DNA of 64,000 bases from a virus (IMGVR_UViG_2924263452_000001:63363-127362); one strand, 5' to 3'. Positions 7,634 to 30,127 are shown, counted from the first letter of the stretch. The notes: generated by a model from the sequence alone, not told the origin. Translations and numbers: made by a program.

Positions 7634-8916
7634 ATAGCGTCCTCCTTTTCTTTACAAAACTGGAAAAAGTGTCGTCTGTTACCATCTACGCAATATTTTT
7701 TAATTTCATTATCTGTAAAGTCAGTATTTGCGATAATTTGAGTTAATATTTCTCTCCATTCAGGGTTTCCCTTTAAAATGCTGCTTATCATTATATAATA
7801 GTTAATCGCCAGATAATGAACTGACCATTTTGTTTTCTTTACCTTCGCAAAATTACTAAAATCACCATACATAATTTTTGTAAGATAATTCATAAATGTA
7901 ATCAACCAGTCTCTTAATTCATCCTGATCTGCTTTTGTTTTTAACAATTCTACATCATAATATCTTGATATAGCCTCTGCAAATTCAATATATAGAATAA
8001 AGCCGCTTCCTCTTCTAAGTTCAACGCCATCTTTCGTAATATTCTTTACATACAACTCATCTGCATCACTACTTCTCATAATTGAGTCAACAATCTTATT
8101 CTGTACAGTCAGCTTCATAGCATCTTTGTGGCGTTTTGGAATAGGAACAGTTGTCCATTCCTGATTTAAGATTCTTCTGGTGTCTGTTGCGGTTAAATAT
8201 GTGAAAAATATACCAAATTTATCATCCTGATGTTTTGTAGATAATTCACACGCAATAGAACGATGATTTCCGTCTGGTACAATAATTGTTCCTGATGTTA
8301 TTGTCAAAGTTTCATTATCCTCATTATAAACTGGAGGATCAGCTTCACCGTCGTCCATCAGATTAAATCTTATACCATTATAAAAGAACTCACCGTTATT
8401 TATAAGATTTGCAATTTCTCTAGCACTTTTCTTATTTACTTTTGTTTTTAACTCACCGTATTTATCTTTTTTATAGTTTCGCTGCAACTCAGGTATGATT
8501 TGTAGTTTATTGGCATTTTTCAGTTTCTTAATTTCGCCTACACTTAACGGAAACATATATTGATTATCGGCAAGCTTTTGTACATGCTTAAAAACGATTC
8601 CATTTTTATAACTATTATTATCATTTTCTGGATCGTAATATTTATAATTCATAATTTCTGCTGGTTCAAAATAATCTTCTATTTTCCCAACAGTTTTTGA
8701 TACTTTTGAGGCAGCATTTAAAATCCAATATAATTCTGCATCGCTTGCATCTTCAAGTGAATATCTTCCAGACAGCATCTTTAAGAAATCACCTGTTGTA
8801 ATCTTATTGTCATGCATGATTTCTTCTTCAAGCTCTTTAGTCTTTGCTGGGCTAATACCCATAATGAATGATTTCACTTTTTCAATTAACTGATTCCTAC
8901 TGTCTGTTGATTTCAT
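7615..8916 (-). CDS. DndB/DGQHR ParB-superfamily protein (YopQ-like)
   Basis: ELQR, I..L...GEF, IRFN, IVPDGNHR motifs. Confidence 0.65.
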   Translation of the reverse strand: MKSTDSRNQLIEKVKSFIMGISPAKTKELEEEIMHDNKITTGDFLKMLSGRYSLEDASDAELYWILNAASKVSKTVGKIEDYFEPAEIMNYKYYDPENDNNSYKNGIVFKHVQKLADNQYMFPLSVGEIKKLKNANKLQIIPELQRNYKKDKYGELKTKVNKKSAREIANLINNGEFFYNGIRFNLMDDGEADPPVYNEDNETLTITSGTIIVPDGNHRSIACELSTKHQDDKFGIFFTYLTATDTRRILNQEWTTVPIPKRHKDAMKLTVQNKIVDSIMRSSDADELYVKNITKDGVELRRGSGFILYIEFAEAISRYYDVELLKTKADQDELRDWLITFMNYLTKIMYGDFSNFAKVKKTKWSVHYLAINYYIMISSILKGNPEWREILTQIIANTDFTDNEIKKYCVDGNRRHFFQFCKEKEDAICTMIK

Positions 8917-9386: not shown

Positions 9387-10631
9387 TCAAAATCTTGAAA
9401 TTCTTGCGACCTCAATTAATTTTTCATTATTATTTTCTACTGCCTCAGTAACCACAAGTTGCAAAAGTCCATTAAGATAATGACCAAGTTCAACATCTGG
9501 AACACCAATCTTCTTTAAATCATGTCCATTTATATCTAAATGTTTCAAATCATAACAATATTCACATGGATTTAAGCATATTTCTTCAACGATATCTTGT
9601 GCTTTATATAAGCACCGCATCATTAATTTGTCTGCATTTTCATCGTATATCATTTTTGCCAACTTAAAATTGATAGTTTTTATTATATCTTCTTTTTGAT
9701 ATTTCGATAATAAACGTCTTATATTCCCAACAGAATCCGTAATAAGTTCTTTTCTGCACTCCATAATATTACACACAGACTTTGAAACTTTGTTCGGGTA
9801 TTTTATAAGAATATCAACTACTTTATGATAATTCTCTATTTTAGCCATATCAATTAAAATCGCCAGCTTTTCGCATAAGTCATCACAGTTCTGAACCATA
9901 TCTATTGTTTTATCCCACTCTGTTATATTGGCAATGTCTGGCATAACATATTCCAAAATATCCTGGTATTCTTTCAATATATCAAAGTTACCACTAATTC
10001 CATCTGTGCAAATAGTCTTTATAAACTCACTTTGCTTTCTTTCAATCGCAATATGATCGAGTAACCCCATATGCTTTCTCATTGCTGTTGCAGTGCTTTC
10101 TTCTATTTTAAACTTGAATCTAACGGCAAATCTTAAAGCCCTAAGAATGCGAAGGGGATCTTCTCTGAATCTGTCATCCGGATTTCCTACGCATCTTATT
10201 ATTTTATTTTTAATATCATCAACACCATTATGTAAGTCAATGATATTTTCTCCGTCATAGGCAATTGCATTAATCGTAAAATCTCTTCGCAGCAAATCTT
10301 CAGCCAAATTTCTTGTGTAACTTACTGTATCAGGGCGACGATAATCCGTATATTTTCCATCAACTCTATATGTAGTTATCTCATATGGTTCATGGTCAAT
10401 TATTATTGTTACTGTACCATGCTTTAATCCAGCAGTCATAATACGGAAATCTTTGAATATTTCTATTATTTCTGTTGGCTGTGCTGATGTAGCAATATCC
10501 CAGTCGTGCGGCGTATATTCCATAATAGAATCTCTCACACATCCCCCAACAATAACCGCCTCATGTTTATTTTCTTTTATTTTGTTTAAAATCATTTTTA
10601 CATTACTTGGCATAATTATATCAAGGTTCAT
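9387..10631 (-). CDS. cca: class II tRNA nucleotidyltransferase (CCA-adding enzyme)
   Basis: VGGCVRD, DWDIATS, EITTYR, DLLRRDFTINA, EDPLRILRALRF, ERKQSE. Confidence 0.9.
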   Translation of the reverse strand: MNLDIIMPSNVKMILNKIKENKHEAVIVGGCVRDSIMEYTPHDWDIATSAQPTEIIEIFKDFRIMTAGLKHGTVTIIIDHEPYEITTYRVDGKYTDYRRPDTVSYTRNLAEDLLRRDFTINAIAYDGENIIDLHNGVDDIKNKIIRCVGNPDDRFREDPLRILRALRFAVRFKFKIEESTATAMRKHMGLLDHIAIERKQSEFIKTICTDGISGNFDILKEYQDILEYVMPDIANITEWDKTIDMVQNCDDLCEKLAILIDMAKIENYHKVVDILIKYPNKVSKSVCNIMECRKELITDSVGNIRRLLSKYQKEDIIKTINFKLAKMIYDENADKLMMRCLYKAQDIVEEICLNPCEYCYDLKHLDINGHDLKKIGVPDVELGHYLNGLLQLVVTEAVENNNEKLIEVARISRF

Positions 10632-14566: not shown

Positions 14567-15145
14567 TTACGCTACCTCAATTCCAAATTTTTCACAGAGT
14601 TCTTCAAGCCCTCTTACAACACCCTCACCGATTGCGTGGAATTTCCAATCATTTCCATCACGATAAATTTCTCCGGCAATAATAGCAGTAGAATTTCCGA
14701 ACTTTTCTTTAAGATCATATCTTGCGATTTCTTTTCCATTCTTGTTATTAATAACGCGAATGTATGAGTTATCAACCATTCCAAAATTCTGCATACGGCG
14801 TTCTGCTTCAAAGATAGTTGCACAAAATACAATTCTTTCTGCATATTTTGGCAGTTTTTCAAGAATGACCTTAATAACCTCATCATCTCCATCGCCAGAT
14901 CCGGTAAGATTATCACCACTATGTATAACACCACCGCTCGGATGTTCAAGGTTATTGTAGAATATAAAATCTTCATCGCATCTTGTCATTCCAGTTTTTG
15001 TAACAACAAAAGCGGATGCATCTAAATCAAAATCTCCATCGTCATCGTATTTTGCTGTGTCCCAACCAAGACATACAGAGATTCCGTCTACAATACTATC
15101 TTTTGATAATGCAACTCTTTCTCCCTTTTTAAGACTTACTGACAT
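14567..15145 (-). CDS. terD: TerD family protein
   Basis: [42 protein letters not shown]. Confidence 0.92.
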   Translation of the reverse strand: MSVSLKKGERVALSKDSIVDGISVCLGWDTAKYDDDGDFDLDASAFVVTKTGMTRCDEDFIFYNNLEHPSGGVIHSGDNLTGSGDGDDEVIKVILEKLPKYAERIVFCATIFEAERRMQNFGMVDNSYIRVINNKNGKEIARYDLKEKFGNSTAIIAGEIYRDGNDWKFHAIGEGVVRGLEELCEKFGIEVA

Positions 15146-15163
15146 GTTACTTTATCTCCTTCC

Positions 15164-15817
15164 TTATTTATATCTTTTTGCCATATCTGGAATACTGCTA
15201 TCATGTGTTCCTTCTCCGATGGCTTTAAACTGCCACTCGTTGTTTTCATCACGATATAATTCACCAACAATAAGTGCTGTACATCTGTTATAATCATCTG
15301 TAAGATTGTAGCGACAGATTTCTTCTTTGGTTGCATCATCTACGATTCTTGTATAACAGTTTTTAATCATTCCGAAATGCTGCCCTCTTACCCTGCAGTT
15401 ATAAATATTCACGGCTACAACTAACTTTTTAATATCTTCTGGCATTTTCTTCAGATCAATTGCAATCTGTTCATCATCATTCCTTTTACCTGTTCCACCA
15501 ACAAGGTTGTCGCCTCTGTGCTTAATGCAACCACTGTCATGTGTAAGGTTTCCATAATAAACAATATCATCAGATCTTGTCAGACCACATTCTGCAACTT
15601 CTTCTGTTTTTGTTTTTGAGAAAAGCCCGAACAGCCCAGATGTTATTTTCTTTGAGATTTGTTTTGTGGATTCACGAAGTACGAACACAGAAGAATCACA
15701 ATCAATACTGTTTCCATTCTGTGCCATATCCCATCCAAGTCCTACAGTTACATTTGCCAGTTTCTCTACTGCTTTTGAAAGATTTACTTTTTGTCCTTTT
15801 GTTAAACTTACCGCCAT
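15164..15817 (-). CDS. TerD/TerZ family protein
   Basis: SLTKGQKVNL, GLGWD, DCDSS, GDNL, DDEQI, WQFKAIGEG. Confidence 0.9.
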   Translation of the reverse strand: MAVSLTKGQKVNLSKAVEKLANVTVGLGWDMAQNGNSIDCDSSVFVLRESTKQISKKITSGLFGLFSKTKTEEVAECGLTRSDDIVYYGNLTHDSGCIKHRGDNLVGGTGKRNDDEQIAIDLKKMPEDIKKLVVAVNIYNCRVRGQHFGMIKNCYTRIVDDATKEEICRYNLTDDYNRCTALIVGELYRDENNEWQFKAIGEGTHDSSIPDMAKRYK

Positions 15818-15834
15818 TCTTTATTTCCTCCTAC

Positions 15835-16401
15835 TTAAACCCCGAAGCTATTGCAAAGTGCCTGTAAACCGCCAGAATATCCCTGTCCGATTGCATTGAA
15901 CTTCCATTCTCCATTGTGGCGGTACAGTTCGCCAAGAACCATTGCTGTCTCTGTTGAATAATCTTCTCCAAGGTCATAACGAATCATTTCTTCATTTGTT
16001 TCTTTATTCACCATTCTAATATGAGAGTTTGAAACCATACCGAAGTTCTGTAATCTTTCTTCTGCCATATAGATAGTTACAGTAAATGCAACTTTTTCAA
16101 TATCATCAGGAATTTTTGTCAGATCAACGATAATCTGCTCATCATCTCCATTGCCTGAACCAGTGAGATTATCTCCCATATGCTGAACTGCGCCACTTGG
16201 ATGCTTTTTATTGTTAAAGTATATAAAGTCTTTATCACTCTTTACTTTTCCATTTGCACCGAGAAGAAATGCTGATGCATCCAGGTCAAAATCATCACCG
16301 TCATACTTATTTGCATCCCATCCAAGACCGACGATAATTTGCTTTAATCCTTCATTTCCTTTTGTAAGATCCACTTTCTGTCCTTTTACTAAACTTACCA
16401 T
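15835..16401 (-). CDS. terD: TerD family protein
   Basis: [38 protein letters not shown]. Confidence 0.93.
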
Positions 16402-16419
16402 TTTATTTCTCCTTATTAT

Positions 16420-16608
16420 TTATTTTGTTTTACAGGAGCGGCTTTTTCGCCACTCCCTATTTATTAAATAAAACGAAATCGGATATGCCATAATGGTCAA
16501 AAAGATAAATGGTAAAAATTTTATTAGGCATGTTAAGATTAATCCAGTCGCATAACAAATCAATGTAATATTCTCAACTCTCTTATGCTCTTTATCTCTT
16601 TTAACCAT
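16420..16608 (-). CDS. small membrane protein
   Basis: 62 aa, hydrophobic hairpin, in operon. Confidence 0.55.
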   Translation of the reverse strand: MVKRDKEHKRVENITLICYATGLILTCLIKFLPFIFLTIMAYPISFYLINREWRKSRSCKTK

Positions 16609-16616
16609 ATGATTTC

Positions 16617-19241
16617 CTACTTTCTTCTAGTGATTGCTTTTCTCACAAGATCAATCGGAATAATTAAGAATGCCAGGGCTACCGTTACACCCCACTGTGT
16701 AAGTGTCATTGCTGTACATCCCATAATTTCCCCACCAAACTGTGCAAGTAAAAATGTAATGACAAAAATCGCAATTGCTATCTCTACAAAAAGTTTGTTC
16801 TTGCCGATTCCTTTAAACAGGTTAAATCCATCTGTTCTGATATTGAAACCGTTGAATGTTGCCATCATCACAAGTAATGCAAATCTCGCTGTTGCATAAA
16901 CTTCTTCGTTATTTCCAAATATATTCTGTATAGCTGGCAATAATGTGAGTCCAAAAATTCCTATAAATGCCATAACTGATACCGCAATCTGACTAACAGT
17001 TTCTTTTGATAACAGTTTTGATCCTTTTGGAATAGGCTTTTCTTTCATATACTCTTCTTTTGCTGGTTCTCCACCAAAGGAAAGAGAATTAAGAGAATCC
17101 ATAACGATGTTAATTACAAGAATCTGCACTGCTGCAACTGCTTCTACAGCCATAATAATCGGATATAAAATACTGAGAATTACCAGACCTACATTGATAG
17201 GTAACTGGAATTTCAGGAACTTCATAACATTGTGCATGAATGTTCTTCCAAGAAGAACTGCATCCGTAATTGACACAAAATTATCATCTGTAATAATAAT
17301 GTCCCCGGCTTCTTTGCATACATCTGTTCCAGATCCCATTGAAAAGCCAACGTCCGCAGCTTTTAAAGCTGGTGCATCGTTTGTGCCATCACCAGTCATA
17401 CCAACACAAAGTCCAAGTTCCTGTGCCAGTCGCACAATTCTCAGCTTTGTATTCGGTGTAGCTCTTGCGATAACCTTGATATGTGGCAATTTTTCTTTTG
17501 CTTCTTCGTCGGATAATGCATCAAAATCAATAGCTGACATCGCAATATCTGTGTCATCTTTGATAAGCCCGGCATCTTTCGAAATAGCTTTTGCTGTGTC
17601 AATGACATCGCCAGTTACCATCATAACCTGAACACCTGCATCATGCATTCTTTCAACTGCTTCTGGTACTTCTGGACGTACATCATCACGAATAGCAACC
17701 AATGAAGTAATGATAAGATCATCAGGTAAACCATTTTCCGGCAATGCTGATCTACTATAGCCTGTTGCAATTACTCGCATTGCTTTTACCGTGTATGATT
17801 TTACAATATCTTTTAATTTATTTCTTTCAACTGTATGTGTGCCATTTTCATCTTCATATGAAACGGCTACATCAATCAAACGCTCTGGTGCGCCTTTATA
17901 GTATGTGATTTTTCCGTCTTTTCCATCAGTTTCAACTGCACTGAATTTATTTGCACTGTTAAAGCTCTTTGCATTCGTTACCTTTACAGAATCAGTGATT
18001 GTTTTATATTCATCACTATCAATCATAGTAAGTAATGCTCTTTCTGTTGCATTTCCACCTACAATGTTTTTATTCTCGTCATACATAGCACTGCTATTTA
18101 ACGCTACATTCAACTTGAATAAGCTATCCACCATTGTTCCACTTGTAACTTTTTCTCTATTACACATTACATTTTCAACTGGAACAAGTTTTCCGACTGT
18201 AAGTGTTCCTGTCTTATCAGTACAAAGCAACTGAATATTTCCCGCTTCCGGAATTTTATTCGTATGTTTTGCCAGGACATTGTGCTTAATCATAATCTTC
18301 GCATTCTGTGCTGTTATAAGATTAATGATAAGTGGTAAACCTTCCGGCACTGCTGCAACAATAATGGTAAGTGCGGTTACTGCAATAGTAAGAATATTCT
18401 TCAGAACTCCAATCCAACCAATTCCAAAATATTCTGCAACGCCACCATATTGAATGATGTTTGTGATGATTAACGCTACTACAATAATTGAAGCTCCAAT
18501 ATACCCGAATTTGCTAATCTGTTTAGCAAGATCCTCTAACTGGATTTCCAACGATGTTTTTGTTTCTTCAATTTCATCAATAGTTGAGATTGTTTGACCG
18601 TTTACCGTATTAACTCCAACATTGGTTACAATCATTTTTCCCTCACCGTCAACCACTGTTGTTCCGGAGAATAATGCATAATAATTTACATAATCATCTG
18701 AATTTGCTTTTCTTTTTCCACCGATTTCGATATGTGGATTTCCTTTATTCCAGGCACTTTTTTTACATGGCTCAGATTCTCCATTTAAAACAGAATTATC
18801 TACTTTTAAATTTCCTTCAACAAGATATCCGTCTGCATAAATAGCCTCACCTGATTGAACAATAACCAAATCTCCAACAACAAGATCATCCGTGTTAATA
18901 TGTTCTATCTTTCCATCCCTAACCACATTGCAATAATGAACCGATGTCCTATCCCTTAATTCTTTCTCACTTTTCTGGCTTTTTAATCCTATATTCATTC
19001 CAAGAAGCGCAATAGCAAGTAATACTACTGCAACGCCAATCGGTTCTGAATAAGAACCCTGTCCAAACACTGCAATAACTGTGAACACAATCATCATGGC
19101 TAAAAGAATCTGGTTTATGTGATCCTTAAATGTTTCCATGAAGAACTGCAGTCCAGTTTTCATTTTTTTCTCTGGTAACTTGTTTGTCCCAAATTTTTCT
19201 CGGTTTTCAACCACCTGTCTACTTGTTAGTCCTTTTTCCAT
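16617..19241 (-). CDS. P-type (P2, Ca2+-type) cation-transporting ATPase
   Basis: GES, AVPEGL, DKTGT, KGAPE, TGD, GDGTNDAPAL, multiple TM helices. Confidence 0.95.
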   Translation of the reverse strand: MEKGLTSRQVVENREKFGTNKLPEKKMKTGLQFFMETFKDHINQILLAMMIVFTVIAVFGQGSYSEPIGVAVVLLAIALLGMNIGLKSQKSEKELRDRTSVHYCNVVRDGKIEHINTDDLVVGDLVIVQSGEAIYADGYLVEGNLKVDNSVLNGESEPCKKSAWNKGNPHIEIGGKRKANSDDYVNYYALFSGTTVVDGEGKMIVTNVGVNTVNGQTISTIDEIEETKTSLEIQLEDLAKQISKFGYIGASIIVVALIITNIIQYGGVAEYFGIGWIGVLKNILTIAVTALTIIVAAVPEGLPLIINLITAQNAKIMIKHNVLAKHTNKIPEAGNIQLLCTDKTGTLTVGKLVPVENVMCNREKVTSGTMVDSLFKLNVALNSSAMYDENKNIVGGNATERALLTMIDSDEYKTITDSVKVTNAKSFNSANKFSAVETDGKDGKITYYKGAPERLIDVAVSYEDENGTHTVERNKLKDIVKSYTVKAMRVIATGYSRSALPENGLPDDLIITSLVAIRDDVRPEVPEAVERMHDAGVQVMMVTGDVIDTAKAISKDAGLIKDDTDIAMSAIDFDALSDEEAKEKLPHIKVIARATPNTKLRIVRLAQELGLCVGMTGDGTNDAPALKAADVGFSMGSGTDVCKEAGDIIITDDNFVSITDAVLLGRTFMHNVMKFLKFQLPINVGLVILSILYPIIMAVEAVAAVQILVINIVMDSLNSLSFGGEPAKEEYMKEKPIPKGSKLLSKETVSQIAVSVMAFIGIFGLTLLPAIQNIFGNNEEVYATARFALLVMMATFNGFNIRTDGFNLFKGIGKNKLFVEIAIAIFVITFLLAQFGGEIMGCTAMTLTQWGVTVALAFLIIPIDLVRKAITRRK

Positions 19242-21590: not shown

Positions 21591-24293
21591 TTATGCCATT
21601 TGTAATTTAGGTATTCTATCAACATCTCTGTTTGAAAACACTTCTATAAAATTCCCTTTTATATTAATACAACGTTCCCCAAGCTTTCCAATATGTTCAA
21701 TATCACTAAGCTTACGAAACCTATTTTTCCCAATCCTTACTGTATATTTATAATAAATTTTGCTTAAATTAGCACAGGTCATATTCTCTTGTTTTAAAAT
21801 ATCCTGATATATCTCATTTGGAACTACTGCCACATTTATTTTTTTATATTCAATATTTCGTACACATTTATTTTCTTTTAACAATTCTCCACTTTCACAA
21901 TAACTATATATATGAACTTCATCATTGAGTGGATTTATTGTACCTATGCTCGCCTTATACCCATCAATGTCATTTTGAGCTATTAAATTGACACTGATAT
22001 TATCCCACACATTATTCATATAATCTGCATTTTTGTATGGTATTTTTAACTGACCATTATTTCTATCAAGTAGATTATATGTGTTTTCCAATAAGCTTTC
22101 GTCATATATTTTATAAGAAAATGATTCCGGAACTGTAACATACAAATAAACATCTTCATTATTAGAATGCTCTCTTATAGTTCCCAAGTCGTCGTGTCTA
22201 CGTAATCTTCCGATAAACTGTATTAAACTTCCAATCGGACACAAACTGGAAATCCCATAGTCAAAATCAATATCAAGCGACTGCTCTATTATAGAAGTTG
22301 CAATCACTATACATCTTTTTCCTCTATGCTCTCTATTCTTTCCGAATTTCTTCAAAAGTTGCTGCGAAATACTGTCCTTTTGTTCTTGTGTCATTTCACT
22401 ATGAAATTTTATAATTTCTGCATCTGGTATTTTATCAATCAACAAATCATATAATTCATCAACCTCTCTTATTAAATTCCTTTTTATACATATACACGAA
22501 CCATTGCCAATTAAACTTTTGGCTAATTCAACGATTTTATCATAATCATTGTCAATATGCCTCTGTTCATATAATGTAATTCTCTTATTTCCTTCTTCAA
22601 ATACTTTTTCCTGAATAAGTTTTCCTTCTCTGTCTATGATTGAAATTAACGGATATGCAGTTGATATTTCGTTGTACTCACCATATACTCCCAGTAGTTC
22701 TTTCTTCATTCTTACTGGTAATGTTGCAGATAACATAACAACTCTAATCCCAAATATCTTGCACATCTCTAAAAATCTTTTTATTACTTCTAACTGAAAA
22801 TAATCTATGTCGTGAATTTCATCTATAATAACCGTTTTGTTTAGCAATCCCATAAATTCCAAACCATAATACGGAATCTTTCTCACAGACATTAAAATTT
22901 GATCTATTGTTCCCACTACATAAGGGTACATCAATTTAAGTCTTTCATCTGAAAGAATATACGATCTATCTAACACGTTATCCTCGTTGAAGTACGAAGT
23001 TCCAGTATATAATAATGCTTTTTCATTTATATTGCACTCTTTAAGAATGTCCCTAACTCTCCCCAACAATCCTTGCGCTGTACAAGTTGTTGGAGTGGCA
23101 AAATAAACACCGCCAGGGGATCTTGATAGTGCAGCATATATAGCCGCCTCTGTTTTTCCTCCACCACAAGCATCCTCAATAAGAATCAGCGAATAATCGT
23201 TTCTATCACAATATCCGCAAATAACATTCTGAATATTATTGGGACACTTAAATTTCCCAAAAATATTATGATATAATGAGTCTTTTTGTTCATAAGACAT
23301 TGAAAAGTTGCTTATATACTGTTCCTTACATCTCTCAGATATATTATCATATAAATATTTCATATATTCAGAATCTTCTTTAAAATCAAGACTCGTTTTT
23401 AATCCAATCGTCATTTGCCCTGAAGCCAACCAATCAGCAAAAACAACTATACTTGTTATTATTAAAGAAACTAGATCAATAATCTCATTTCCGTCTACAT
23501 CACTGTATAATTTCATATTTGTATTTTCTCCATTATGATACGGAAATAGTTTACAAATATATTTATACATACTTTTAATATCGTCCGGGATTTCGCAACA
23601 ACTCAAAAAATCTCGCGTTTCTGATCTTCCCACTTTATTTTGATGGTGGCACGAAATAATCTTTTTGGCAATCCCTATATTATATCTATCTAAAATCCCA
23701 TCCTTTTTTAAGAGCTGCTCCAAAATGATTTCAGAGTATACTTCATGCCGGAATTTTTTACAATCTCTTTCTGTTGGATTTTTCCAAAATTCATCGTGCA
23801 TTTTTCCTATATCATGAATCGCCGCTAAAAAGATGACAAATCTTTTTACATCGTTTGTATCTGACTCCGTTAATTCAGATATTCTTTTAATAGTATTCCT
23901 GAATATTGTATTACACAAATATTTTGCTATTACACCAGATTCTATTAAATGAATGTGTAAATATTTATCTGGTTTTGCATAATAGTTCATCCAGTTCGTT
24001 ATTTCTTTTTCGTAATTTTTTGTAATCAAATTTATTCCTTCAAAATCATTAAGTTTATATCTTGTTTCTCTAATTGTCTTTATAGAGAATTTTTGCTCTG
24101 CTTTATCACTGTAAATAAGTGTGGCAGAAATTTCTATATTTTCTTTAGATTCGTTTTCTAGCATATTCCATATGTATTCTCTTGTATTCGCAGGACAAGT
24201 TGACAAAAATACATATGGCTTTATTTCATAACAAAATCTAGTTAATTCACCTCTGATTTTATCTGGAATATTTTCACATATAATCAAAAACAT
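21591..24293 (-). CDS. cas3: Cas2(I-E type)-Cas3 (HD nuclease + SF2 helicase) fusion
   Basis: N-terminal ~92 aa ENIPDKIRGELTR..EI..VF..R..IW..EQKF..DFEGINL = Cas2e; HL, IHDIGK, RHE, HH, ADW (HD); CGGGKTEAA, GTIDQ, DEIH, SATLP, EQSLDIDFD, QFIGRLRRH (helicase). Confidence 0.92.
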   Translation of the reverse strand: MFLIICENIPDKIRGELTRFCYEIKPYVFLSTCPANTREYIWNMLENESKENIEISATLIYSDKAEQKFSIKTIRETRYKLNDFEGINLITKNYEKEITNWMNYYAKPDKYLHIHLIESGVIAKYLCNTIFRNTIKRISELTESDTNDVKRFVIFLAAIHDIGKMHDEFWKNPTERDCKKFRHEVYSEIILEQLLKKDGILDRYNIGIAKKIISCHHQNKVGRSETRDFLSCCEIPDDIKSMYKYICKLFPYHNGENTNMKLYSDVDGNEIIDLVSLIITSIVVFADWLASGQMTIGLKTSLDFKEDSEYMKYLYDNISERCKEQYISNFSMSYEQKDSLYHNIFGKFKCPNNIQNVICGYCDRNDYSLILIEDACGGGKTEAAIYAALSRSPGGVYFATPTTCTAQGLLGRVRDILKECNINEKALLYTGTSYFNEDNVLDRSYILSDERLKLMYPYVVGTIDQILMSVRKIPYYGLEFMGLLNKTVIIDEIHDIDYFQLEVIKRFLEMCKIFGIRVVMLSATLPVRMKKELLGVYGEYNEISTAYPLISIIDREGKLIQEKVFEEGNKRITLYEQRHIDNDYDKIVELAKSLIGNGSCICIKRNLIREVDELYDLLIDKIPDAEIIKFHSEMTQEQKDSISQQLLKKFGKNREHRGKRCIVIATSIIEQSLDIDFDYGISSLCPIGSLIQFIGRLRRHDDLGTIREHSNNEDVYLYVTVPESFSYKIYDESLLENTYNLLDRNNGQLKIPYKNADYMNNVWDNISVNLIAQNDIDGYKASIGTINPLNDEVHIYSYCESGELLKENKCVRNIEYKKINVAVVPNEIYQDILKQENMTCANLSKIYYKYTVRIGKNRFRKLSDIEHIGKLGERCINIKGNFIEVFSNRDVDRIPKLQMA

Positions 24294-24316: not shown

Positions 24317-25575
24317 TATAATACCTTCTCTATATAAGAAGAAATACAGACGGGTTTTCCACTACCATTTGCATTTTTAGAACCACCTTCTCATGCAGAG
24401 AAGAAACCTTACAAAAGGATATGCTCAGTGTTACAATACAGGAATTACCTTCTCATATAGAGAAGAAGCATCGAACATATGTATCTATGTGACAAACACG
24501 AAGAATTACCTTCTCGTATAGAGAAGAAACTTCTGTTTATCTGTATTTATGCTCGAACATTTAGAATAACCTTCTCATGTAGAGAAGAAACATCGGTGCT
24601 GCCAATCAAGAGCAATCAACCGCTCAGAATAACCTTCTCATATAGAGAAGAAATTGAAATCCCCATTTCGAGGCAACAAATAGATTTAGAGTTACCTTCT
24701 CATATAGAGAAGAAATAAAGAAGCTATAAAAAAGCCAAGCGAGGACACAGAGTTACCTTCTCATATAGAGAAGAAATTTTTGATATGGATTCCGGCAGCA
24801 GTCGCGCCATAGAGTTACCTTCTCATATAGAGAAGAAGCCCTGACAAGTCCTTATGATACGATACACTATGAGAATTACCTTCTCATACAGAGAAGAAAT
24901 GTCTGCACAACTGCATCGTGATCTGACTCTTTAGAATTACCTTCTCATATAGAGAAGAAATTAAAAGCTTACTTTCCCACTTCTTTCTGCGGTGAGAACT
25001 ACCTTCTCATATAGAGAAGAAACAGAGGGATAATTGGAGGATCAGATTCTTTTTCGGAATTACCTTCTCATATAGAGAAGAAACACAAAAACTTGCGGGC
25101 TATCTCTTGATGCGTGGGGAATGACCTTCTCATGTAGAGAAGAAACTGTGCCACGCACCGGAAGCTCTCCATATTCAAGAATCACCTTCTCATATAGAGA
25201 AGAAACAGCGGCTAGCACTGTAAGAAATGGCTTGTCTTTAGAACTACCTTCTCATATAGAGAAGAAACCGGCAATATTCACCTTTATGGCACACCTGCAA
25301 GAGAATAACCTTCTCATGTAAAGAAGAAACGTACTCAGATTTTCTTGAAAGTTCTCTCCTGGAGAATAACCTTCTCATGTAGAGAAGAAACTTGATCCAT
25401 TTGAGATCTTTTCCCTCGCAATTAGAATAACCTTCTCATATAGAGAAGAAACTGATAAGAATTTTTATGTCTATTGATTGCCTCAGAATAACCTTCTCAT
25501 GTAGAGAAGAAACATGTTCCGCGGTTGCAAATGCTGATCTGATCTGAGAATAACCTTCTCATGTAGAGAAGAAAC
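24317..25575 (-). CRISPR. CRISPR array: 21 repeats (29 nt, GTTTCTTCTCTAYATGAGAAGGTWATTCT), 20 spacers of ~31-34 nt
   Basis: ~61-62-nt periodicity; CTTCTC/GAGAAG hairpin; I-E-like layout; degenerate terminal repeat at 24317. Confidence 0.98.
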
Positions 25576-25583
25576 TCCATAGT

Positions 25584-26201
25584 TTATAAGATTACAAACG
25601 GTAACATAAGCCCACTTCCATATGATTTTTGCTGCCCGATTCCATTTTTGCAAGCTTCAATGAATTTGTCACGATCATCTATTCTTACACGTAAAATGAA
25701 TGTCGATATTCCTAATTCTCTGCTCTTCACACCGTCCTTTGCAATATAGCACGATGTTTGGATTTCTTTATAAATTTTTTTCACCGTTGCACCGGATTCC
25801 AACATCTTTCTTATAACCCAATTTTCTTTTTCATATGAATCAGTAATGAGCATTTTTCTACTACTATTTTTTTCTTTTGACTTTATAACGTCAGTTTTTA
25901 CTGGGTTCACATGAATCTCAATATCAATTTCGTCATCTTCTATACATTCATCATAATTGATTTCTTCAGAATGAACCACAGAAAATCCTGTACATGCTTC
26001 AACATTTGGTTTATTTATAGACTGTAGAAAAATCACCTGATCTTTTTCATCGTTATAAAATAACACGCCTTCTTCTTTTCTATTTGATTTAAACATCCGC
26101 ATAATTGTCTTATGCATCTTATCAAAATCATGCAACTCCATTCGCATTTTTTTTATGTCATATTTTAAAATATATAAATACATAGCATCTAACCTCTGCA
26201 A
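25584..26201 (-). CDS. cas6e: Cas6e/Cse3 crRNA endoribonuclease; start probably MYLY near 26183
   Basis: HKTIMRMF, VNPVK, G-rich loop GIGQQKSYGSGLM. Confidence 0.9.
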   Translation of the reverse strand: MQRLDAMYLYILKYDIKKMRMELHDFDKMHKTIMRMFKSNRKEEGVLFYNDEKDQVIFLQSINKPNVEACTGFSVVHSEEINYDECIEDDEIDIEIHVNPVKTDVIKSKEKNSSRKMLITDSYEKENWVIRKMLESGATVKKIYKEIQTSCYIAKDGVKSRELGISTFILRVRIDDRDKFIEACKNGIGQQKSYGSGLMLPFVIL

Positions 26202-26728
26202 TTCCTATACGAACACCTTTTTGTTATTTTGTACATCTTACTTACATCAACTCTTTCTACTCCTTTGAAAACATTCCCTGCCGGATATTCCTTTCGACCA
26301 AGGTATAAATCTCTCTTCGGATGTTCAAGACAATAACCAATTCCTTTTGTAATATAATCATCATAAAGTCTAAAATACAAAACGAATTTCTTATCTACTA
26401 TGGCTTCTTTTCTTACGATAGAAAGCCCTTTAGGATCTATTTTCCCATTTCCACACATATGCTTATCCATGTTCGATTTATGAAAATCTTCCATGATTGA
26501 ACATGCTCCACTCATATCTGACTGTTCTGTATCTAAATATAGTTCAATATTATCTTCGATATAATCAATAAGTGGATTTTTATAAGTTAGATTTAGTGCG
26601 TTTTCAATTAATCCTCCAACTCCTGATAAGGTTGGTATGTATGATGTTCTTTTAAATATAGGTGTACTTGCAGTACCCCACGATTGAAGTGGGGCAGCAA
26701 ATACTAATTTTCCGTATAACTTTTCCAT
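26189..26728 (-). CDS. cas5: Cas5e
   Basis: APLQSWG, PTLSGVGGL, LYLGRK. Confidence 0.9.
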   Translation of the reverse strand: MEKLYGKLVFAAPLQSWGTASTPIFKRTSYIPTLSGVGGLIENALNLTYKNPLIDYIEDNIELYLDTEQSDMSGACSIMEDFHKSNMDKHMCGNGKIDPKGLSIVRKEAIVDKKFVLYFRLYDDYITKGIGYCLEHPKRDLYLGRKEYPAGNVFKGVERVDVSKMYKITKRCSYRNCRG

Positions 26729-28008
26729 TAGATATTTTCCTTTACAAAATCCATAATATCTTTTTCCTTATATGTCACACTTACATTTTCATCCGTAAGT
26801 CCAAATTCTTCTTTTCTAGCAAAATATGAAGGACGTAAAAACAGCTTTTTCTTCTCTTCTTTTATCCCCTCATTGTTTTTAATAATAGCAGAATCAATAA
26901 ATGTGTTTAAAGCATCAATCGAATCTTTGGCTGGAATACGAAAATCCACATCATATGCATCTCTTCTTTGACCAAATGTAACATACATTAATATAGGTTC
27001 TGATTCTGAAAAGTATGAATTTCGTCCTCCTGTTGGATGTGACCAATAGATAGCTTCCATGTAAATGCCGATAATTAAACGTGCTATTTCTCTCGCTTCT
27101 TCTCTTGTTTCTATTCCATTGTATCTCATTTCATTTTCGATCATCTGATTTATGTCAATACAGTATTCTTCCAGTAAAAGTGGTGAACTAATATCTATAT
27201 CAAATAAGTTTGCTGCACCAGGATTCTTATACGGATCGTATTTGTTTCCAAAAACAGTTTCTCTTCTTGACTGATAACTAGAATTGTATGCCTCTTCAAT
27301 TACACTAAAAGCACAAGCAACGGAAACAGAGCTATTAATTGTTTTAATGAAGCATGTGCTCATTCTTCCAAGTAAACAAAGTAAATGTCCGCAGCTATGT
27401 AATTTCCCAATTCTTAAAATAACTTCGTTTTTAAATTTAGTCTGAAGCTCTTTATCCGAAAAATCATCTACCGTTTTGAAAAATTCAATAAATGTATCTG
27501 CAATACATTTAATCTCATTTACAGAATATTTATTACTTTCTTTTGTTGTAATTGAAATACTTTCACTGCTTGATTTTTTTGGTTTCTTGTTACATTTACT
27601 ATCACTCTTATCATTTCCATCTTTAAAAATATTTTTCAAAATCAATAAAATTCTATCTTCCTCATCATCACTTAACTCTACACCAGTTTCCTTTTTGAAA
27701 TAACCTCTAAGATATTCGGCTAAAATAAGTTCACCAATTCTTCTTGTATCTCTTCCAATATCTAATCCCTTATATAGCTGCTTAATATATTCTTTCTGTC
27801 CATTCTTGATCGCCGCACTACTGCAAAACGTTCTGTCAACTCCATTGTAAGTAATAGTTTTAATATTACCAACGCCATCGCAATTTAAACGGGCAGCTTT
27901 GTATGATCTTAATACATGTACATTGATAATATTATTTTCATTGTCATTCATTCTTCTTTCAATAATTTCTTTAATGCATTCAATTTCTGTCATTTTTCTT
28001 TCCTCCAC
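26728..28008 (-). CDS. cas7: Cas7e/Cse4 (divergent)
   Basis: HVLRSY...LNCDGVGNIKT..Y.G..R...SS..IK, LLGRM, PTGGRNSY. Confidence 0.85.
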   Translation of the reverse strand: MEERKMTEIECIKEIIERRMNDNENNIINVHVLRSYKAARLNCDGVGNIKTITYNGVDRTFCSSAAIKNGQKEYIKQLYKGLDIGRDTRRIGELILAEYLRGYFKKETGVELSDDEEDRILLILKNIFKDGNDKSDSKCNKKPKKSSSESISITTKESNKYSVNEIKCIADTFIEFFKTVDDFSDKELQTKFKNEVILRIGKLHSCGHLLCLLGRMSTCFIKTINSSVSVACAFSVIEEAYNSSYQSRRETVFGNKYDPYKNPGAANLFDIDISSPLLLEEYCIDINQMIENEMRYNGIETREEAREIARLIIGIYMEAIYWSHPTGGRNSYFSESEPILMYVTFGQRRDAYDVDFRIPAKDSIDALNTFIDSAIIKNNEGIKEEKKKLFLRPSYFARKEEFGLTDENVSVTYKEKDIMDFVKENI

Positions 28009-28477
28009 TTGATAAATATTTTATTAATTTTTTCCCTGAATATTCCCAATTGCAAGCAAGCATATATAAATCATACATGTCACAACCATTTTCTTTTGAT
28101 AATGATTTTATTAACCTCTGACATATCCTCTTTGCTGTATGATTAAATTCCTTCTGTGTTACAAATGTTTCTATATTGCTTTTTGCTGATCCTGAAATTT
28201 CTGATGAATAGTAGTTTCTTTTTAATATATCACCTATTTTACTTGCCCCTGCTCCAATTGGATCTCTCATATTTAAAGCTAAAGAAACTACAAAAAGCAA
28301 ATTTCCATCAAACTTCTTGATTTCAGGAAAACTTGTATAATACGCAAGCAACTGTTCTCCACTAAGCTCATCTTCCGAATCTACATTTATTGCTTTTTTC
28401 AAATCTCTTCTTCTTTTAGAATTTTCTCTTTTAGTAAGAAGATTAAGTCCTTTATAAAACTCTTCTCTGCTTAACAT
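27980..28477 (-). CDS. cas11: putative internally initiated Cas11/Cse2 (165 aa)
   Basis: in-frame ATG (codon 551) with GGGGAG 5 nt upstream; R.DLKK and RL...L......D...L...W Cse2-like patterns. Confidence 0.6.
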   Translation of the reverse strand: MLSREEFYKGLNLLTKRENSKRRRDLKKAINVDSEDELSGEQLLAYYTSFPEIKKFDGNLLFVVSLALNMRDPIGAGASKIGDILKRNYYSSEISGSAKSNIETFVTQKEFNHTAKRICQRLIKSLSKENGCDMYDLYMLACNWEYSGKKLIKYLSSGGKKNDRN

Positions 28478-30127
28478 ATACACTCCCCGCACATTGTAAA
28501 CCGTATTATCCGGAATATCATTTGCACCATATTCTTTATATAAATATGCGAAAAATTTATTCTTTCTTCGTTCACATTCGATTCCTATAAACCTATCGCC
28601 ATACTTTTTAAATATTTTTATGGCTTCGGTTGTTACCCATTTAATCGCATTGTCTTTGTCGCCACTATTTATAATATCCATTAAGTTCTTATTTATAAAA
28701 AGTGCAGTTTCACATTGATACATGAAATTGTTTAATGCTGACTCTGCGATAACTGATCCTTTTGCTTTTCGGTTCTCTCCAAAACGTCTAATAGTGTCTA
28801 TATCTTTAATTGCTTTGTAAATCTCTTTTGCAATCGCTGCTATGTCATCACAAACTAATCGCAATAGTTTTACATTTACATTTTTATTTATTTGATACTC
28901 CAAGTTAATCATTTCTCTAACCTGACTGGTGTTTATTATATCAAACCCAACCAACTTAATAGAAAAATCGTCTGGGAGAAATTCGATATTATCTCTAGCA
29001 CTATTTAATCCGCTTATACCCATACCAGAAGCGATAGAGTTTCCTGATGACGGTATAAGAGCGTACATTTTCAAAAATGGCTTGTTATCTATTCCAGATC
29101 CTTCTAAGTCAATACAATTGCAAGCTTTCAGTTGCTTCCCATTCACTTTATAAACATTTGGATCGCGAACCTTCCATATTTTTGAGATCTTTTCTCTTTG
29201 TCCCGCATTTATTGATGGTTTTTTAAAATAAATGCTTCTTATAACCCCATTTTCATAGTCAACATTTCCGTATCTTATAAAATTATACGGTGTCATATAA
29301 CAATTCATAAATTTTATTTCGTGCAAGCCATTCTTATCATTTTTGTCGCGGTCAATTTCTGAATATATTTTCAGCATATCCGAATACTGTTTTCTTCTAT
29401 AAAATGGTACTCCTGAATAGTCAATATCCTTCGACGAAATATTTAGAAGTAATGTTTCAAAAACATTATTCGCTTTTATAATGCCAATCATAACAGTATT
29501 ACCTAATAATGTAGAAGCCCATCCAAGTCCATTCGCTCCAGAATAAAACATTCTGAGACACAATATATACAAATATTCTTGGAATGTCACACTTGCAAAT
29601 TTTATATAACTGTTTTCCTTTGAATACACAAAGCCGTTTCGTGTGGTATCTTCCTTGTAATAATTTTCATATGCTTCTACATCCATATACCCGTAAAACA
29701 TATCATTTGTTTCTTTTTTACAGGTTGGAACAATAAAACCAATTGGTCTTTCTTTTGCTTCAATTTCTCCGGCTGCATACTGTGCGAATGCTTTTTTCTC
29801 ACCAAGCAGCTCAAATGACGTTCCTTCTTTTCTGCAGTTGTCAAAATATTCTCTAATAATATCCATATCAAATCTGCCTTTTTTAAGAAGATCATATATA
29901 TCACTTTTTCTTTCAGTTGATCGCGGTTTATAGATGTCACACAAGAACAAATCTAACAATCGAATAATTCCAACTGCAGTCATATCAACTCCCAGAACTG
30001 GCAATATTTCTTTGTATTCATGAGCATTTTCAAAAAGTTCAAGAACAGATACATTTATATCATTTCCACTCTTATCTTTAACTCTGATGCATTTACTTTC
30101 TAAAATATCGTATGTTGTATTCATCAA
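27980..30127 (-). CDS. cas8e: Cas8e/Cse1 fused in frame to Cas11/Cse2
   Basis: Cse1 N-terminus YDILE..I.V...G....VS..ELF..A, IIRLL, FELL....FAQ; C-terminal 165 aa Cse2-like. Confidence 0.8.
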   Translation of the reverse strand: MMNTTYDILESKCIRVKDKSGNDINVSVLELFENAHEYKEILPVLGVDMTAVGIIRLLDLFLCDIYKPRSTERKSDIYDLLKKGRFDMDIIREYFDNCRKEGTSFELLGEKKAFAQYAAGEIEAKERPIGFIVPTCKKETNDMFYGYMDVEAYENYYKEDTTRNGFVYSKENSYIKFASVTFQEYLYILCLRMFYSGANGLGWASTLLGNTVMIGIIKANNVFETLLLNISSKDIDYSGVPFYRRKQYSDMLKIYSEIDRDKNDKNGLHEIKFMNCYMTPYNFIRYGNVDYENGVIRSIYFKKPSINAGQREKISKIWKVRDPNVYKVNGKQLKACNCIDLEGSGIDNKPFLKMYALIPSSGNSIASGMGISGLNSARDNIEFLPDDFSIKLVGFDIINTSQVREMINLEYQINKNVNVKLLRLVCDDIAAIAKEIYKAIKDIDTIRRFGENRKAKGSVIAESALNNFMYQCETALFINKNLMDIINSGDKDNAIKWVTTEAIKIFKKYGDRFIGIECERRKNKFFAYLYKEYGANDIPDNTVYNVRGVYMLSREEFYKGLNLLTKRENSKRRRDLKKAINVDSEDELSGEQLLAYYTSFPEIKKFDGNLLFVVSLALNMRDPIGAGASKIGDILKRNYYSSEISGSAKSNIETFVTQKEFNHTAKRICQRLIKSLSKENGCDMYDLYMLACNWEYSGKKLIKYLSSGGKKNDRN

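Follow-up and report, generated by a model that had tools for sequence, protein, structure and literature searches.

An in-frame cas8e-cas11e fusion in a phage-borne type I-E CRISPR operon, with a candidate internal start for free Cas11e

The 64,000-nucleotide (nt) stretch analyzed here (IMGVR_UViG_2924263452_000001:63363-127362, hereafter the window) makes up the latter half of a virus record of 127 kb in IMG/VR, and it carries on its minus strand a type I-E CRISPR-Cas operon in which the genes for the large and small subunits of Cascade are joined into one. This gene, cas8e-cas11e (positions 27980-30127), encodes a complete Cse1 (Cas8e) followed by a divergent homolog of Cse2 (Cas11e), and at the boundary of the Cas11 domain it holds an in-frame ATG preceded by a Shine-Dalgarno (SD) motif. 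The reading of the gene as a Cas8e-Cas11e fusion is solid. That translation also begins internally, so that a start retained in this phage-borne fusion yields free Cas11e, seems on balance probable from the sequence.

The Fused Cas8e-Cas11e Protein

The open reading frame (ORF) of cas8e-cas11e comprises 715 codons (2148 nt) from a TTG at position 30127. The next codon is an ATG (30124), and because it directly follows the TTG and relatives start there, the true product is probably a protein of 714 amino acids (aa) and 82.1 kDa. This family is common in metagenomes, where the 714/710-aa form occurs in two clusters of 67 and 20 members, from many independent contigs of up to 254 kb.

The N-terminal ∼540 residues of the protein are a complete Cse1/Cas8e. 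Among the curated models, Pfam PF09481 (Cse1) matches residues 10-231 only (E 3.3e-8; 33.6 bits against a cut-off of 24.7), and the NCBIfam Cse1 model, TIGR02547, is not reported for the window protein. A phmmer search of 1.8 billion representatives returned 218 Cse1-type relatives, and the alignments to Cse1 proteins of 520-551 aa extend to query residue ∼509. The same extent is seen in a full-length AlphaFold2 (AF2) model, built on 59 sequences, in which the predicted local distance difference test score (pLDDT) is mostly 75-98 across the Cse1 part. The Cse1/Cas8e body (28577-30124, minus strand; ∼residues 1-516 of the 714-aa form) consists of an N-terminal globular domain and a C-terminal four-helix bundle, the helices of which span residues 418-448, 458-477, 480-486, and 490-516 with a pLDDT of 75-89. 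In a Foldseek search with this model the top 23 matches are all Cse1/CasA chains (E down to 3.3e-13), and the alignments (516-608 columns; target-normalized template modeling score ∼0.5-0.7) cover whole Cse1 chains. The gene also occupies the first place of an operon with cas7e, cas5e, and cas6e, beside an array of the I-E type. Since Cse1 is complete, including its own bundle, the C-terminal part has been added to Cse1 and does not replace its C-terminal domain.

Between the bundle and the added domain lies a linker of ∼34 residues (28478-28576, minus strand), which ends in NVRGVY and carries the internal SD motif. It is of low confidence in the full-length model, where pLDDT is below 50 across residues 513-569. 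The linker is predicted to be disordered and would presumably be long enough to reach the first Cas11 position of the complex.

The last 165 residues (27980-28477, minus strand; 18.9 kDa, isoelectric point 9.3) are well supported as a divergent Cse2/Cas11e homolog, and the lines of evidence from profiles, hidden Markov models (HMMs), structure, and a language model agree. The curated Cse2 models, PF09485 and TIGR02548, give no match at E ≤ 1 to either the 165 aa or the full protein. Seven loci of the ordinary I-E type in Clostridia genomes served as a reference; in all of them cse2 is a gene of its own, and its product of 166-175 aa is close in length to the fused domain. An HMM of the seven Cse2 proteins was searched against 197 collected proteins, among which are four other long Cse1 families (P0025, P0037, P0081, and P0088). 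The best match is the C-terminus of P0088 (E 8e-48), a 691-aa metagenomic protein in which Pfam and TIGRFAM assign residues 4-472 to Cse1 and residues 538-673 to Cse2. The next best matches, weak but in register, are the C-termini of long Cse1 forms (E 0.005-0.1); HMM positions 7-106 pair with residues 555-657 of the window family. Matches in register are confined to the long forms; the match to P0037 does not rise above chance level, and at E > 1 the results also include a few Cse1 proteins of 500 aa.

Comparison of profiles gives a clearer result. A query built from the C-termini of the window protein, P0002, P0025, P0081, and P0037, with no recognized Cse2 row, aligns by hhalign with the Cse2 profile at E 3.9e-6 (probability 87%), with 133 columns in register; as controls, the reversed profile gives 0.088 and column shuffles give 0.66-0.92. 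A weaker comparison, with a single-family profile, gives E 0.0015.

The AF2 model of the 165-aa domain has nine helices (pLDDT 61). The preliminary description of this DNA, which held that the residues following the internal ATG look like Cse2, had proposed a structural comparison as the check, and in two such searches the top matches are all Cse2. With VIA-align, which is independent of Foldseek, ranks 1-6 among 48,161 chains are Cse2/CasB (Z 10.1-7.5, against 5.4 for the next chain), with 139-146 residues aligned at a root-mean-square deviation of ∼4 Å; with Foldseek, ranks 1-11 are Cse2, but at E 0.056 or worse. Because the folding alignment contained Cse2 rows, this structural line is not fully independent. 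The ESM Atlas, which does not depend on our alignment, places three Cse2 clusters as the nearest neighbors of the domain (scores 0.86-0.88; 190-197 shared features). Together with the hhalign result, these matches bear out the assignment. The basic character of the domain presumably fits a small subunit that contacts DNA.

A search for stand-alone relatives of the 165 aa found only fragments of the same gene. Likewise, a Cse2 profile search for longer proteins found none, although it also missed P0088, a known fusion, and was thus insensitive.

The Internal Start Site and Its Possible Product

Free Cas11e would start at an ATG on the minus strand at 28477 (28475-28477; CAT on the plus strand). 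This candidate start is in frame, as codon 551, and the nested ORF that it opens is 165 codons long. Its context is GTGCGGGGAGTGTATATG, in which the SD-like GGGGAG (28483-28488, minus strand) is encoded by codons R547-G548-V549 (CGG GGA GTG) and is followed by a 5-nt spacer, TGTAT, and the ATG. The preliminary description had located both elements correctly to the base.

The position of this site matches that of an ordinary cse2 start. In a multiple alignment, Met551 pairs with Met1 of stand-alone Cse2, and the two sequences then run parallel to their ends. In the seven ordinary Clostridia operons, the cse2 ATG lies anywhere from 2 nt beyond the cse1 stop to an overlap of 8 nt with it, and the cse2 SD (aaggag, aggagg, or aaaggga) falls within the last cse1 codons. 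The junction in the window therefore has the layout of an ordinary cse1/cse2 junction minus the stop codon. The most economical reading is that cse1 and cse2 were fused in frame and that the initiation signals of the ancestral cse2 survived, which would explain why the ATG sits at the domain boundary.

The pair of SD and ATG is genuine, and few internal sites match its strength. The SD forms a duplex of -7.4 kcal/mol with the anti-SD, a strength reached by only 6 of the 581 internal in-frame ATG, GTG, and TTG codons (1.0%) in window ORFs of at least 150 aa, and by 2 of the 306 internal ATGs. It is stronger than the median for the first starts of window ORFs (-5.7), and stronger than the SDs of cas8e (-5.0), cas5 (-5.7), cas6 (-3.9), and cas2-3 (-5.1). 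The gene, 2148 nt long, has no second GGGGAG. A 165-aa protein of exactly the nested extent (P0153) is recorded from three contigs, which is weak evidence for a separate product. An internal promoter was also sought: promoter-like matches number 59, against 50 ± 6 in shuffled sequences, which gives no sign of a separate transcript.

In our reading, a former cse2 became continuous, in frame, with the 3′ end of a complete cse1, and its ribosome-binding site (RBS), GGGGAG, and its start, Met551, were retained. In the mechanism that we propose, one mRNA would give two products: the 82-kDa Cas8e-Cas11e from the 5′ ATG, and free 18.9-kDa Cas11e from the internal ATG. From spacers of 32-33 nt and the stoichiometry of E. 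coli Cascade, a backbone of six Cas7 subunits with two Cas11 positions is expected. The Cse2 position beside the Cas8e four-helix bundle would fall to the tethered Cas11 domain and the second position on the backbone to free Cas11, and both copies together would stabilize the R-loop before Cas2-Cas3 is recruited. We infer both the 1+1 stoichiometry and this placement of the two copies. A pairing of one tethered with one internally initiated Cas11 had been suggested in the preliminary description; of this, the Cse2 homolog fused behind a complete Cse1 and the lack of a detectable separate cse2 hold, while use of the internal start is somewhat more likely than not.

Several observations weigh against internal initiation. 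First, ancestry alone gives this placement of ATG and SD, without any present function. Second, the residues Arg-Gly-Val tend to give an SD whatever their codons: when the peptide N-V-R-G-V-Y is recoded synonymously, weighted by phage codon usage, the recoded sequence matches or exceeds the SD strength 48% of the time (P = 0.48), and so the SD is a by-product of the peptide and bears no signature of selection at the codon level. Third, the aligned SD-to-ATG spacing of 4 nt is short for this phage, in which 37 of the 70 window gene starts with a clear SD have a spacing of 7-9 nt and only 3 have one of 4 nt. Fourth, the mRNA folds locally with a stability about one standard deviation above the mean for the gene; the SD core lies in the loop of a hairpin and is of average accessibility, which makes the mRNA structure neutral. 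A similarly short gap is seen by eye in one ordinary cse2 (in the locus L002: aaaggag, 5 nt, ATG). An argument from codon rarity (CGG supplies 3.4% of Arg codons) was dropped, as with AGA, a common codon, the sequence would read AGAGGAG and the SD would be no weaker.

The relatives are too close to inform on conservation of the site: those that share the C-terminus are all at least 90% identical, and DNA is available for one. The ATG codon is invariant in 31 family members, as is R-G-V-Y-M, but at this level of identity (at least 90% in all) the invariance is uninformative. The only relative with readable DNA, from a 157-kb metagenome contig (ADJT01012479.1, or L001), is 98% identical; it keeps CGGGGAG and differs in the spacer by one synonymous change (GTG to GTA). 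The pattern used for the metagenome scan fixed the fourth codon of the nested ORF as Arg, and a branch at 90% identity with Lys there lay outside its scope. Among the four other long Cse1 families, three have a Met 10-30 residues upstream of the Cse2-like domain, which at the protein level would give products of 172-197 aa. The motifs at these junctions (RRGGQFTM in P0025, RGGYEYMM in P0037, and GRKEM in P0088) contain Gly, Arg, and Glu residues whose codons could spell an SD before the Met, and they may recur as a mark of cse2 starts that were kept. The fourth long form, P0081, counts on the other side, as it lacks a Met at the junction.

The main rival account is that the gene makes only the 82-kDa protein, with one tethered Cas11 per Cascade, and that the SD and ATG are a relic, unused or barely used; relic signals are just what an ancestral cse1/cse2 junction would leave. 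This account is credible because a single tethered copy could suffice: Cas11 was reported to be dispensable for silencing and for plasmid interference in E. coli type I-E, and deletion of Cas11 only halved the activity of the Cas5-HNH variant of type I-E (PMC10910872). We nevertheless regard it as a possibility to be held tentatively. An SD of this strength with an ATG is normally enough for some initiation, and it exceeds the SD of the gene itself; the spacer length implies two Cas11 positions, of which a tethered domain would fill one; and in types I-B, I-C, and I-D a fused domain alone is insufficient (bioRxiv 10.1101/2020.04.18.045682). It is also suggestive, although the fusion event is undated, that the site is intact while the Cse1 part has diverged to ∼36% identity with its nearest unfused relative (P0003).

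A second Cas11, and with it Cas1, might instead be supplied from elsewhere, either by the ∼25% of the phage genome that is absent from the record, a linear fragment that CheckV rates as 75% complete, or by the Cse2 of a host I-E system, given that related Cse1 proteins come from Clostridia with ordinary I-E operons. We consider this very improbable. The cas operon is contiguous and is flanked by unrelated genes, and a six-frame search of the 127-kb record with PF09485 and TIGR02548 gave no separate Cse2 family match, although both models also miss the fused domain. The wide divergence between the Cas11 domain and Clostridia Cse2 (E 0.005-0.1 with the HMM above) makes exchange with a host Cse2 seem unlikely. 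Least credible of all is an artefact, whether an assembly frameshift that joined cse1 to cse2 or an unrelated helical domain at the C-terminus: the curated Cse2 models are silent on the 165 aa, the domain model has a low pLDDT with Cse2 rows in its input, and the gene is split in L001, but the fused form recurs in both metagenomic clusters, the split is a one-base homopolymer insertion in a contig where cas7 is split too, the hhalign match was reached without a bona fide Cse2 row in the query, and the alignment-independent neighbors in the ESM Atlas are all Cse2.

The Surrounding Operon and Its Relatives

The virus carrying the operon is a gut-type phage, and the window has a G+C content of 34%. 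The cas genes form a phage-borne, compacted type I-E interference module that lacks cas1, all on the minus strand and in the order cas8e-cas11e, cas7e, cas5e, cas6e, CRISPR array, and cas2e-cas3. Following the fusion gene are cas7e (26728-27993; PF09344, E 5e-19, and TIGR01869), with its true start at the ATG at 27993, cas5e (26189-26728; PF09704, E 2.2e-11, and TIGR01868), and cas6e (25584-26201; PF08798, E 1.4e-21, with TIGR01907 above its cut-off). The ATG of cas7e overlaps the end of cas8e-cas11e by 14 nt, and its SD (GGAGG) is encoded by Gly-Gly codons in the Cas11 tail. Cas7e itself is long (421 aa from this ATG), with a Lys/Ser-rich insertion at ∼residues 130-170 that is absent from ordinary Cas7e.

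The CRISPR array (24379-25575) lies between cas6e and cas2-cas3 and contains 20 repeats of 29 nt, with spacers of 31-34 nt. Placed within the operon, it has almost no flanking leader, and the variation among its repeats is mostly in the 3′ handle. A distant-mode blastn search of the array against GenBank phages gave no target for the spacers. Downstream, the cas2e-cas3 fusion (21591-24293) encodes a 900-aa protein with a Cas2 domain of the CT1978 type (PF09707) at residues 1-89, followed by the Cas3 HD, DEAD, and C-terminal domains. Fusion of Cas2 to Cas3 is a hallmark of type I-F. Here Cas3 bears an N-terminal Cas2 domain of the I-E type, though no cas1 is detected in the window, and the Cas1 family has no match anywhere in the 127-kb record.

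Farther along the minus strand (14567-19241) are three tandem TerD-like genes (192, 217, and 188 aa) and then an 874-aa protein that resembles a P-type cation ATPase, as read by eye from the translations. The TerD-like genes and the putative P-type cation ATPase are unusual phage cargo.

Among the closest relatives (at least 90% identical), the Cas11 domain is about twice as variable per residue as the Cse1 N-terminal domain, with 11-12 against 1-6 variable columns per 30. In L001, cas8e-cas11e is split by one extra T in a run of T (9542-9567), and cas7 is split as well (8406-8476); given the one-base insertion in a T run and the second split in cas7, these look like homopolymer sequencing errors and not real pseudogenes. 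Scans of viral contigs with the window protein, P0037, P0025, P0081, P0088, an alignment, and a degenerate DNA pattern found no relatives, and neither did tblastn against phages and plasmids. The scan of genome contigs returned only the seven ordinary Clostridia I-E loci, all with a separate cse2.

Comparison With Known Systems

Type I-E is the best-studied Cascade, and as a platform for genome editing it needs six cas genes. The joining of Cas8e to Cas11e, and of Cas2 to Cas3, shows how phages compact such a system. With a working internal start, one gene fewer would suffice to keep large and small subunits at 1:2, and the one-gene, two-subunit mechanism of types I-B, I-C, and I-D would extend to type I-E; the operon would then offer a model from nature for removing one gene from I-E editing systems. 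Capture of the small subunit has long been proposed as the origin of the large subunits of types I-B, I-C, and I-D. The fusion described here is an evolutionary intermediate for such a capture, in which both parts and the old start signals are still recognizable, and if the internal start is used, it would be a fusion step in the making, with a complete Cse1, a complete Cse2, and the old RBS still at work. The gain is incremental, because the mechanism belongs to a known kind and the fusion has already been noted in print, in a single line.

Only the curated Cse2 models fail to place the genes in type I-E; all other tests do so. The canonical I-E Cascade (E. coli K-12, T. fusca, and T. thermophilus) contains one Cse1, two Cse2, six Cas7, one Cas5, and one Cas6e, and that of E. 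coli is accordingly written CasA1 B2 C6 D1 E1. The phage operon shares with it homologous Cse1, Cse2, Cas7e, Cas5e, Cas6e, and Cas3, as well as the order cse1, cse2, cas7, cas5, cas6, and its array, like that of E. coli, has 29-nt repeats and 32-33-nt spacers. It differs in its two fusions (cse2 in frame with cse1, and cas2 with cas3), in the lack of a detected cas1, in the position of the array between cas6e and cas2-cas3, and in being borne by a phage.

For the proposed mechanism, precedent comes from types I-B, I-C, and I-D, where an internally translated Cas11 is required (McBride et al., 2020, preprint, bioRxiv 10.1101/2020.04.18.045682) and where the fused copy was proposed to nucleate the minor filament (bioRxiv 10.1101/2020.04.18.045682). 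As in those systems, an in-frame start with an RBS stands at the boundary of the Cas11 domain, and a tethered copy is proposed to join free copies in a minor filament. In types I-B, I-C, and I-D, however, the C-terminal domain of the large subunit is itself the Cas11-like part, whereas here an extra Cse2 follows a complete Cse1; only one free copy would be needed here.

Within type I-E, the preliminary description had stated that cse2 is encoded separately, which is not always so: fusions exist both in I-E-derived systems (PMC10910872) and in P0088. The former are mentioned in one sentence, as cas8-cas11 fusions in the Cas5-HNH variants of type I-E (Altae-Tran et al., 2023, PMC10910872), where an internal start is not discussed (PMC10910872). 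In our literature search, we found no report of an internal Cas11 start in type I-E, and the fusion itself only in that source (PMC10910872). The phage protein resembles the Cas5-HNH variants in having an I-E-derived large subunit fused to Cas11, but those variants lack Cas3 and carry an HNH domain on Cas5, whereas here Cas3 is kept, as Cas2-Cas3, and there is no HNH. With P0088 the phage protein shares the combination of Cse1 and Cse2 in one chain, with a Met at the junction. The Cse2 part of P0088 is close to ordinary Clostridia Cse2 and only ∼17% identical to the Cas11 domain of the window, and for this reason P0088 is probably an independent fusion.

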